This document shows positions 23,048-25,678 of a DNA stretch of 64,000 nt, one piece after another. Origin of the DNA: Fastidiosipila sp. GTDB lineage: Bacteria; Bacillota; Clostridia; Saccharofermentanales; DTU023. Position 1 is the first letter of the stretch; each line of letters begins with the position of its first letter. Position numbers and translations under genes: made by a program. A model generated the notes under the pieces. It was given only the letters and a program-made list of their open reading frames with translations. It did not search any database and had not been told where the DNA came from. The stretch is taken from contig JAAZGO010000010.1 of the NCBI GenBank assembly GCA_012511175.1, forward strand, positions 5,563-69,562, read 5' to 3'.

Positions 23048-25678
23048 TCAACACTTGCGGTAGGCCCGGATCAGGGCGTTCAATGTTTCCTTGGCATCTC
23101 CCAGCAGGAGCGCAATACCGGAACGGTATGACTCGTCGTAGAGAGGATTGTCGACACCCGCATAGCCGGGCAGTTTATCAAAGTTGCAGATAATGATGTG
23201 TTTGGCCTCCTCGACGTTGAGGATGGGCATACCGTAGATGGGCGTTCCCTCCGCCGTATTGGCTGCCGGATTGACCACATCGTTGGCTCCGATGATCAGA
23301 GCGACATCGGTTTTGGCAAATTCTTCGTTGACGTCCTGCATTTCATGGAGTTTGTCGTAGGGGACATCGACTTCTGCCAGGAGGACGTTCATGTGGCCCG
23401 GCATCCTGCCCGCCACGGGGTGAATAGCGAATTTTACCTCTTTGCCTTCCTGTTCCAGTTCAGTCATCAGTTGTTTGACGAGTGACTGCGCCTGGGAGAG
23501 GGCCATGCCGTAACCGGGTACGATAATGACGCTCCGGGCCTCATTCAGCCATTTGCCGCCCAGCTCCTCCGGCGCGGATTCCTCCCCGGCCGGTGCCTTC
23601 GGTACCTGGCAGACCCGGAAGGCCTGGATGATGGCATTCAGGGTGTCTTTGGCGTCACCCAGCATGAGAGCGACGTGATCCTCGCGTCCTTCATCATAGA
23701 GCGGGTTGTCGACGCCGGCATAGCCCGGAAGTTTGTCGAAGTTGCAAATAATGACGTGCCTGGCGTCTTCGACATCCAGGATGGGCATGCCGTAAATGGG
23801 TGTTCCCTCTGCCGTGTTGGCAGCCGGGTTGACCACATCATTGGCGCCGATAATGAGCGCCACGTCTGTTTCTTTGAAAGCGGGGTTGATCTCGTCCATT
23901 TCCCGGAGCTTGTCATAGGGAATATCGACCTCGGCCAGGAGAACGTTCATGTGCCCCGGCATCCTGCCGGCGACCGGGTGGATGGCAAATTCAACCTGCT
24001 TGCCTTCCTGCTCCAGCTCAGTCATCAACTGCTTGACGGTTGACTGTGCCTGGGAGAGGGCCATGCCGTAACCCGGCACAATGATGATCTTCTCCGCTTC
24101 CCGGAGCCAGAAACCGCACTGGAGTTCAGGAGTCAAGATACCCTTATCGGGATCTTCTTCCTCTCGTTCCAATCCCCCTTCGCGGTAGGATTTCATGATG
24201 GCGTCAAGCGTTTCCTTGGCATCTCCCAGCATGAGGGCGATGTGATCTTCGCGACCCTCATCATAGAGTGGATTGTCGACACCCGCATAGCCGGGGAGCT
24301 TGTCGAAATTGCACATGATGACTTTTTTGGCGTCTTCGACATCCAGGATGGGCATGCCGTAAATAGGTGTTCCCTCTGCTGTGTTGGCAGCCGGGTTGAT
24401 CACATCATTGGCGCCGATGACGATGGCGACATCCGTGTCCTTGAACTCATCGTTAATATCCTGCATCTCATAGAGCTTGTCGTAGGGAATGTCAACTTCA
24501 GCCAGTAGGACATTCATATGGCCGGGCATCCTGCCCGCCACGGGATGAATGGCGAATTTGACCTCCTTGCCTGCTGCTTCCAGCTCGGTCATCAGCTGCT
24601 TGACGGTCGATTGAGCTTGGGACAGAGCCATGCCATAGCCTGGCACGATGATAACGCGCTCGGCATCGCGGAGCCAGCATCCGCAGGATTCCCCGGGCGA
24701 CATGGCAGCCGCGGGAAGACCTTTGGTTTCCTTCCCCGCTGGATCAGGTACTTTCGGCCGTCCTGCCGGTTTTCCGGCCGCCGATGTCTTGCCGAGCAGA
24801 ATGTCAAAGAGCTTGCGGTTCATGGCCCGGCACATGATCTGAGTCAGAAGGAGGCCGGAGGCACCGACGACACCCCCGACAGCCACCAGAAGAGGATCGG
24901 CGATGGCCATGCCGGCGATGGATCCGGCTACACCGGACAAAGAATTGAGCAGGGAGATGGTGATGGGCATATCAGCGCCGCCGACCCGGATGGCGAAGAT
25001 GACACCAAAGGCGCCGGATAACAGGGCGCAAAGGATGATCAGGACTGCTTTCAGGACAGGCGCTGCCAGGATAGCGGGAAAGACCAGCAGGATCACAGTG
25101 ACAAGCGACAAGATCAGAGTCAGGGCCGTCCAGACAGGGTGCTTTTTCAGGACAATGGGGCGCTGTGGGAGAAGATGATGGAGTTTGCCCGCTGCCACCA
25201 GGCTGCCCGTTAAAGTCAGTGATCCGACAAAGATGGCAAGCCCGGCGGTTGCCAGCGAAAAAACCGTTTCGCCTGGCTTGGCCGCGATCAGGGTCAGGAT
25301 GCCGGCCAGCATGGAGGCACCGCCCCCGAAGCCATTCAGCAGGCCGACCATCTGTGGCATCTGGATCATCTTGACCTTGACGGCGATCAGGATGCCGATC
25401 AGGAGCCCGACCAGCATAGCTGCCCAAAGTTCAATGAAACTGAATATGCCGAAATACCAGAGTGTCAGCACAATGGCCAGCAGCATGCTGACGGCTCCCA
25501 TGGCATTGCCCGCCACAGAGGTTTCAACCCGGCTCATCATGGAGATGCCGACCAGGACGGCGACGGTCAGAATTCCCGCAGCCACGTAGTAGACAATATT
25601 CTCAGCCGTTGAAGCCTGTTCGGCCACCAGGAGAGCGGGCAGGAAAGAGATCTTGGAAAGAATCGCAGAAAGAATCAT
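23048..25678 (-). CDS. pntB: NAD(P) transhydrogenase subunit beta with three tandem dIII (NADP(H)-binding) domains
   Basis: 876 aa. The N-terminal ~290 aa form the polytopic dII domain. Three colinear ~170-aa copies of the dIII domain follow. Each copy carries [33 protein letters not shown], [33 protein letters not shown] and LGDAK. Confidence 0.9.
   Translation of the reverse strand: [876 protein letters not shown]
23051..23563 (-). repeat. pntB dIII repeat unit 3 (aa ~706-876, C-terminal)
   Basis: Coding direct repeat. It is more diverged at the nucleotide level (compare 23222-23292) but all dIII motifs are kept. Confidence 0.9.
23612..24121 (-). repeat. pntB dIII repeat unit 2 (aa ~520-689)
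   Basis: Coding direct repeat, in frame with unit 1 (offset 567 nt) and unit 3 (offset 558 nt). Confidence 0.9.
24179..24688 (-). repeat. pntB dIII repeat unit 1 (aa ~331-500)
   Basis: Coding direct repeat. For example, 24347-24417 is almost identical to 23780-23850 (offset 567 nt). Confidence 0.9.

Follow-up and report, generated by a model that had tools for sequence, protein, structure and literature searches.

A PntB transhydrogenase subunit with three tandem dIII domains in Fastidiosipila sp. and its multi-dIII relatives

A 64,000-nucleotide stretch of contig JAAZGO010000010.1 from Fastidiosipila sp. (the window, below) contains a pntB gene whose 876-amino-acid (aa) product carries three copies of the nucleotide-binding domain dIII behind a single membrane domain, dII, and so raises the question of how several dIII domains could serve one proton channel. 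In the accepted mechanism, the proton-translocating transhydrogenase is a symmetric dimer with one dIII per dII, alternating between a face-up state, in which hydride is transferred at dI, and a face-down state, in which nucleotide exchange at dII is coupled to proton movement. The swivelling dIII takes up and gives off its nucleotide while facing down on dII, and faces up for hydride exchange on dI. An earlier note on this DNA, made from the letters alone, had proposed the triplication and remarked, reasonably, that it would imply a different stoichiometry or mechanism; the analyses presented here address whether the array is genuine, how widespread it is, and what it may do.

The tandem array and its constraint

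The proposed architecture of one dII and three tandem dIII domains is borne out by profile searches. Pfam PNTB (PF02233) matches the protein in three stretches (E=0, 1037 bits), the best of which, aa 36-496, covers profile positions 7-455 of 456, and the three dIII cores fall at aa 334-499, 523-688 and 709-874 (Table 1). The NCBIfam equivalog for PntB, NF006974, likewise gives three stretches, and its cut-off of 689 is passed, with 720.7 bits, only by summing them. The linkers are flexible: those of the window PntB are disordered and 20-33 aa long, the ones between dIII domains being rich in Pro, Ala and charged residues, and across relatives the inter-dIII linkers have a median length of 20 aa (range 12-50). 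An AlphaFold2 (AF2) model of the full chain, built from an alignment of 20 three-copy proteins, contains nine long dII helices and three dIII domains, each with the same alpha/beta pattern, and no defined inter-domain arrangement (predicted template modelling score, pTM, 0.34); in this model the dIII domains look like beads on a string with flexible linkers.

Residues expected of a working enzyme are largely in place. Each of the three copies has PGYGMA (Y315), HPVAGR (H345, R350), GAND (D392), the loop D motif GMP, GYAG (Y431) and GDAK (D450), in E. coli numbering; R350 corresponds to R383, R572 and R758, and D392 to D425, D614 and D800, in copies 1, 2 and 3. No copy in the 20 three-copy relatives, and none of 559 unique dIII domains, departs from [33 protein letters not shown].NPL or GDAK, and the nucleotide-site motifs outside the KRS motif discussed below are conserved across these 559 related domains as well. 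In dII, the Asp/Arg pair at the channel mouth, whose role has been described for E. coli D213/R265 (PMC5026163), corresponds to D236 (GGADMP) and R288 (AMNRK), both invariant among three-copy relatives. The channel histidine is carried by PntAB (LLHTPLMS), and the PntB residue that corresponds to E. coli His91 is Asn.

Repeat search recovered the in-frame direct repeats described in the earlier note, with start-to-start spacings of 558 and 567 nt. The units share 75-79% nucleotide and 80-84% amino-acid identity. Within the stretch where units 1 and 2 had been called nearly identical (24347-24417 versus 23780-23850), 68 of 71 positions agree, and unit 3 matches the two at 59/71 and 62/71. Tandem Repeats Finder reported nothing; its longest period is 500 nt, against a unit of ~560 nt, and the copies are 21-25% diverged. 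The differences between units lie mostly at third codon positions, as had been claimed (17/9/78 by codon position for units 1 versus 2), and the purifying selection postulated for all copies is seen in the between-copy comparison, with synonymous divergence (dS) of 1.3-1.5 and a ratio of nonsynonymous to synonymous divergence (dN/dS) of 0.07-0.10.

Constraint is apparent between species as well. In the closest relatives (80-87% identity) the copies correspond position by position, 1-1, 2-2 and 3-3; against the relative P0004, for instance, the diagonal identities are 0.96/0.93/0.91 and the off-diagonal ones 0.80-0.87. Since the copies match positionally in these relatives, the triplication is older than the species concerned. 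When each copy was compared separately with its positional orthologues in four loci (L001, L004, L013, L058), dN/dS was 0.013-0.11, ratios that are approximate because dS is saturated in the orthologue comparisons, and every copy was more constrained than dII. The linkers evolve fast (dN 0.37-0.60 versus orthologues). Among the dIII domains dN is lowest in copy 1, intermediate in copy 2 and highest in copy 3 in each of the four comparisons (0.027, 0.040 and 0.054 against L001).

The array might instead be an artefact of assembly across repeats, or a duplication of recent date that is decaying into a pseudogene. Tandem repeats of ~560 nt can indeed mislead short-read assemblers, and in three loci from metagenome-assembled genomes (MAGs) the last dIII lies in a different frame from the rest of pntB (L011, 5985-8566; L063, 5991-8578; L050, 5486-8239), which could reflect an error of sequencing or assembly in the repeated region, or genuine decay of the distal copy. 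Against this, the copies are not collapsed or expanded reads of a single unit, because 21-25% of their nucleotides differ. The 876-aa protein is recorded in identical form on 11 contigs of up to 710 kb, named there as NAD(P) transhydrogenase subunit beta of Fastidiosipila sp. or Bacillota bacterium MAGs, and homologues are found on chromosome-scale contigs of cultured strains, four-copy forms occurring in Alkalicella caledoniensis (3.70 Mb) and Porphyromonas cangingivalis (2.35-2.40 Mb). Together with the positional orthologues and the low per-copy dN/dS, these observations effectively refute an artefact or pseudogene, whose probability we regard as negligible. The tandem-dIII feature is real, old and selected.

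A subfamily with labile copy number and an altered loop E

The array is far from unique. Homologues were evaluated in two samples, the top 120 database matches and the 80 best loci among species-representative genomes. All of the top 120 matches combine one dII with several dIII domains (three in 27, four in 86 and five in 7). Among the best 80 loci, two dIII copies occur in 26, three in 43 and four in 10; in the remaining one, L059, the contig end cuts pntB after one copy. Carriers in the Clostridia include Saccharofermentanales/Mageeibacillus, Oscillospiraceae, Christensenellaceae and Merdimmobilis hominis; those in the Bacteroidales include Porphyromonas uenonis, P. endodontalis, P. circumdentaria, P. 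miyakawae and Hoylesella marshii, along with Parabacteroides, Petrimonas and Dysgonomonadaceae, and further examples come from Desulfovibrio, with D. falkowii among the cultured carriers, and from Treponema and Riflebacteria. All of these multi-dIII proteins are annotated as plain PntB. The earlier note knew of no described example: no description of a multi-dIII PntB was found in the searchable literature (full text, reviews and recent structure papers, with subscription journals lying outside), but the protein is no one-off, PntBs with two to five dIII domains being widespread.

Copy number within the array is labile. In a domain-level tree, dIII copies group almost always by protein or lineage rather than by position, and in three-copy relatives at 74-77% identity to the query a protein's own copies are 92-98% identical to one another and show no positional match to the query. 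Within P. endodontalis, strain ATCC 35406 has three copies and a MAG four, the first two of the latter being 98.8% identical in DNA (comparison of L022, 6000-9084, with L072, 4955-7481); this is either a recent within-species change of copy number or a collapse in one of the assemblies. The most divergent copy is the last in 38 of 56 proteins with at least three copies and the first in 15. Such patterns bear the signature of an array that evolves by unequal crossing-over and concerted evolution. Positional specialisation of the copies was considered and rejected: across 76 dereplicated proteins, per-column entropy and top residue revealed no column that separates first, middle and last copies, and the copies are therefore equivalent by sequence.

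According to the earlier note, the motifs building the NADP(H) site are retained in each copy, which holds for the motifs listed above and fails for one. The E. coli residues K424-R425-S426 in loop E, the KRS motif, which contacts the 2'-phosphate in dIII crystal structures, align to N-F-D in all three dIII copies of the window; over the loop E stretch, the aligned T. thermophilus and ovine sequences show no conserved residues. The substitution is common to the 559 unique dIII domains, in which E. coli positions 424/425/426 are Asn (100%), Tyr/Phe/Leu and Asp (99%), position 429 is Pro (99%), 404 is Thr (99%) and 439 is Tyr (100%; Phe in the canonical type), and a Lys is often left in loop E at position 427 or 428. 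By comparison, 19 canonical domains have K-R-S/G at 424-426. The KRS motif has been assigned to the NADPH-binding site, and loops D and E are said to decide specificity in favour of NADP(H) rather than NAD(H) (PMC9529548).

The altered loop E is not confined to arrays. In a search with dII alone, which covered 1.84 billion representatives, the clusters nearest by dII include single-dIII proteins that are also of the N-x-D type, and K-R-S/G is confined to dII sequences further away, with no more than 44% identity. The named single-dIII N-x-D representatives are all uncultured MAGs, and none is a model organism with biochemistry. Among the arrays seen, all genuine tandem ones have N-x-D. In a search with a KRS-dIII profile for tandem canonical domains, the matches listed were all short proteins or fragments of less than 300 aa, a weak test. 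The only three KRS matches above the single-domain score (P0299, P0300, P0304) have domains joined mid-fold and without linkers, and were set aside as chimeric or partly duplicated; P0299 lies on a contig of ~1 kb and P0304 on one of ~1.1 kb.

The third trait of these enzymes is a soluble dI, which is a separate polypeptide in all 80 related loci. The association of the arrays with soluble dI and an N-x-D loop E is exclusive; together with the tandem dIII domains, these linked traits mark out a large and apparently undescribed PntB subfamily. In dI itself, the Asp at the end of Rossmann strand beta-2 (GDIRP, NAD-type) is present in 78 of 78 aligned sequences, namely that of the window, 76 from related loci and one reference. 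A specificity swap between dIII and dI was rejected on this ground. Because dI keeps the NAD-type Asp, an NAD(H)-specific dIII would yield no net reaction, and from the sequences it seems likely that NADP(H) is still the substrate, bound differently and probably more weakly.

Swinging carriers, anchors or a changed nucleotide site

By analogy with other carrier-domain arrays, the dIII domains may be tandem swinging carriers that share a single dII site and jointly keep soluble (dI)2 dimers engaged, the best-supported reading, to which we assign a probability of roughly 0.45. Three equivalent and putatively competent dIII domains on flexible linkers would alternate at one dII docking site, and at least one soluble (dI)2 dimer would be kept at the membrane by the array, so that throughput and dI retention would rise with the chemistry unchanged. 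We infer that every copy docks on both dI and dII and that the benefit is one of throughput or avidity. The carrier array is favoured because all three copies are constrained and retain the catalytic and interface motifs in each, because positional specialisation is absent and short flexible linkers join domains modelled as beads on a string, and because copy number varies between two and five with concerted evolution, as in carrier-domain arrays. It is favoured further because soluble dI is universal in the 80 loci and because the docking and channel elements of dII, D236, R288 and the PntAB HTPLMS histidine, are kept. As has been noted, three-subunit enzymes may depend on a face-up dIII for the retention of (dI)2; in E. 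coli, a fusion made through the C-terminus of dIII still has about one third of the activity (PMC13635403).

Several considerations weigh against such carriers. The association with soluble dI may simply reflect the shared ancestry of the subfamily. Release of NADP(H) from dIII is usually considered rate-limiting in canonical enzymes; if this step requires the one dII site, added carriers would bring no faster turnover. The loss of KRS may mean that nucleotide binding differs from that of the textbook enzyme, and the rise of dN along the array suggests that the proximal copy could carry more of the function.

An alternative is a division of labour, in which only the proximal dIII would couple to dII with proton-linked NADP(H) exchange and the distal copies, never docking on dII, would anchor (dI)2 at the membrane or hold nucleotide as a hydride buffer. 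We consider it rather unlikely. The separate dI of all 80 loci and the face-up dIII thought necessary to retain (dI)2 would suit distal anchors, as would the gradient of dN in four comparisons out of four and the tendency of the last copy to be the most divergent (38/56). Yet no class of residues tells the first, middle and last copies apart, invariance in loops D and E and in the nucleotide-site motifs is the same for every copy, and divergent edge copies are the normal signature of unequal crossing-over, for which a functional cause is unneeded. In these sequences the dN gradient mildly favours some division of labour, and the absence of position-specific residues favours equivalence. Distinctly less probable, and compatible with the other readings, is a changed nucleotide chemistry, in which the N-x-D dIII would lack the canonical tight, occluded binding of NADP(H), binding it more weakly or preferring a nucleotide that lacks the phosphate presumed to be contacted by KRS; in that case the multi-dIII array would be an adaptation to this binding mode, and the enzyme something other than a textbook NADH:NADP+ transhydrogenase. 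In its favour are the N, Y/F/L, D of positions 424-426 and F439Y throughout the 559 domains, the part ascribed to KRS and to loops D and E in NADPH binding and specificity (PMC9529548), and the restriction of the genuine arrays seen to the N-x-D type. It is countered by the NAD(H)-type Asp of dI, with which an NAD(H)-binding dIII would have no net reaction, by the unaltered remainder of the nucleotide-site motifs, by the frequent Lys at 427 or 428, and by the single-dIII N-x-D proteins, whose existence indicates that N-x-D alone does not require extra copies.

It is tempting to combine these elements. The N-x-D, multi-dIII, soluble-dI enzymes of anaerobes might form a mechanistically distinct class of transhydrogenase with nucleotide recognition independent of KRS, in which two to five weakly binding dIII domains per proton channel, instead of one tightly occluding domain, shuttle hydride between several dI dimers and one dII. 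This proposal is doubtful; if true, it would break the strict 1:1:1 alternating-site model.

Whichever reading proves correct, a natural family with two to five equally conserved dIII domains per dII amounts to a built-in experiment on the alternating-site model, and makes it possible to ask whether dIII is a truly diffusible carrier, whether the dII or the dI step is limiting, and how soluble dI stays at the membrane. That this family has also lost KRS points towards a way of recognising NADP(H) that is unstudied. The carriers include medically and industrially relevant anaerobes, such as Porphyromonas, relatives of Prevotella, Desulfovibrio, Treponema and the Clostridia of anaerobic digesters, in which the sources of NADPH are poorly defined. 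There is also a consequence for annotation, multi-dIII proteins being currently labelled as ordinary PntB.

The pnt locus and its known counterparts

The locus is predicted from its genes to encode a three-subunit proton-translocating transhydrogenase of the T. thermophilus type, composed of PntAA, PntAB and PntB (Table 1). The genes pntAA and pntAB lie directly upstream of pntB on the same strand, an order repeated in related loci, the pntAB stop and the pntB start overlap in ATGA, and the three genes together make up an operon of the kind known from T. thermophilus and R. rubrum. The true start of pntAB is probably the ATG at 25974 (MTTTQG...), which has an AAGGAG ribosome-binding site 7 nt upstream and would give a protein of 99 aa instead of the 123 listed from 26046. 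The NCBIfam PntA match of the window PntAA spans positions 1-368 of 510. No second pntB was found in the 64-kb window. In six related loci (L033, L043, L044, L045, L057, L079) a separate pntAB was not found, dI is still its own gene and the pntB frame is 50-170 aa longer at the N-terminus, which suggests an alpha2-beta fusion of pntAB to pntB.

Table 1. Features of the pnt locus and of the 876-aa PntB (window coordinates; pLDDT, predicted local distance difference test; dN/dS ratios are approximate because dS is saturated)
Feature	Position	Strand	Description
pntAA	26061..27227	(-)	388 aa, soluble dI, the NAD(H)-binding subunit alpha-1; Pfam AlaDh_PNT_N and AlaDh_PNT_C, NCBIfam PntA
pntAB	25675..26046	(-)	small membrane subunit alpha-2; Pfam PNTB_4TM (2.6e-31), LLHTPLMS histidine motif
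pntB	23048..25678	(-)	876-aa beta subunit, one dII and three dIII; stop-free open reading frame, Pfam and NCBIfam matches
dII membrane domain	24779..25618	(-)	aa 21-300; nine transmembrane helices predicted; alignable to dII of E. coli and T. thermophilus
Lys/Pro/Ala-rich linker, dII to dIII copy 1	24680..24778	(-)	aa 301-333; pLDDT <50 over aa 298-325
dIII copy 1	24182..24679	(-)	aa 334-499; dN/dS 0.013-0.031 vs positional orthologues
N-F-D codons, copy 1	24302..24310	(-)	loop E, position of K424-R425-S426; residues N457, F458 and D459
Acidic/Pro linker 1	24113..24181	(-)	aa 500-522; pLDDT <50 over aa 502-513
dIII copy 2	23615..24112	(-)	aa 523-688; dN/dS 0.017-0.090 vs positional orthologues
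N-F-D codons, copy 2	23735..23743	(-)	loop E
Pro/Ala/Glu linker 2	23555..23614	(-)	aa 689-708; pLDDT <50 over aa 692-700
dIII copy 3, C-terminal	23057..23554	(-)	aa 709-874; dN/dS 0.030-0.111 vs positional orthologues
N-F-D codons, copy 3	23177..23185	(-)	loop E

Two genes for flavoenzymes of the Old Yellow Enzyme family flank the operon (27376-29673, (+), and 21890-22918, (+)), one encoding a 765-aa Fe-S enzyme that resembles BaiCD and 2,4-dienoyl-CoA reductase, the other a 342-aa NamA-like NADPH dehydrogenase. The gene for the 765-aa enzyme adjoins pnt in eight related loci, comprising six of the closest relatives (L002, L004, L005, L011, L013, L058) and two more distant loci (L033, L052). 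With synteny found mainly in the closest relatives and otherwise in those two loci, the flanking flavoenzymes were rejected as parts of the system. Beyond them, a 397-aa open reading frame at 20684-21877 (+), with a C-terminal class II aldolase/epimerase-like domain and weak NCBIfam matches, has a syntenic counterpart in L011, L013 and L058, which are among the closest relatives.

Among characterised enzymes, the alpha1/alpha2/beta transhydrogenase of T. thermophilus (PDB 4O9U) resembles the window system in its pntAA-pntAB-pntB order, soluble dI, nine-helix beta dII, Asn-Gly at the position of E. coli beta-His91, channel histidine in the alpha-2 HTPLMS motif and dIII core motifs (phmmer E-value 8.9e-87 over aa 35-497); it differs in having one dIII instead of three and K-R-G instead of N-F-D in loop E. 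E. coli PntAB (PDB 9L76 and others) belongs to the same family (E-value 9e-90) and shares the nucleotide-site motifs except KRS, but has two subunits, dI being joined to the first helices of dII, and carries a single dIII, KRS and beta His91. In size, too, the proteins part company, canonical PntB having ~460 aa and one dIII, against three dIII in the window protein and two to five in its relatives.

Extension of dIII beyond its C-terminus has precedents in the beta-alpha fusions of protozoa and in an engineered E. coli PntB-linker-PntA, where a flexible linker of ~37 aa continues from the dIII C-terminus and activity is retained (PMC13635403). In those fusions the linker reaches dI and each protomer has one dIII, whereas here it reaches further dIII domains. 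Tandem carrier domains are familiar from the one to three lipoyl domains of the pyruvate dehydrogenase E2 component (E2p) and from the tandem acyl carrier proteins (ACPs) of polyunsaturated fatty acid (PUFA) synthases. The likeness to the dIII array is one of analogy and not of homology: in each case near-equivalent mobile repeats are strung on linkers of Ala, Pro and charged residues, copy number varies by species and the repeats evolve in concert, but the folds and chemistry are unrelated, and the cargo is covalently bound in lipoyl domains and ACPs, whereas the nucleotide of dIII is held non-covalently.

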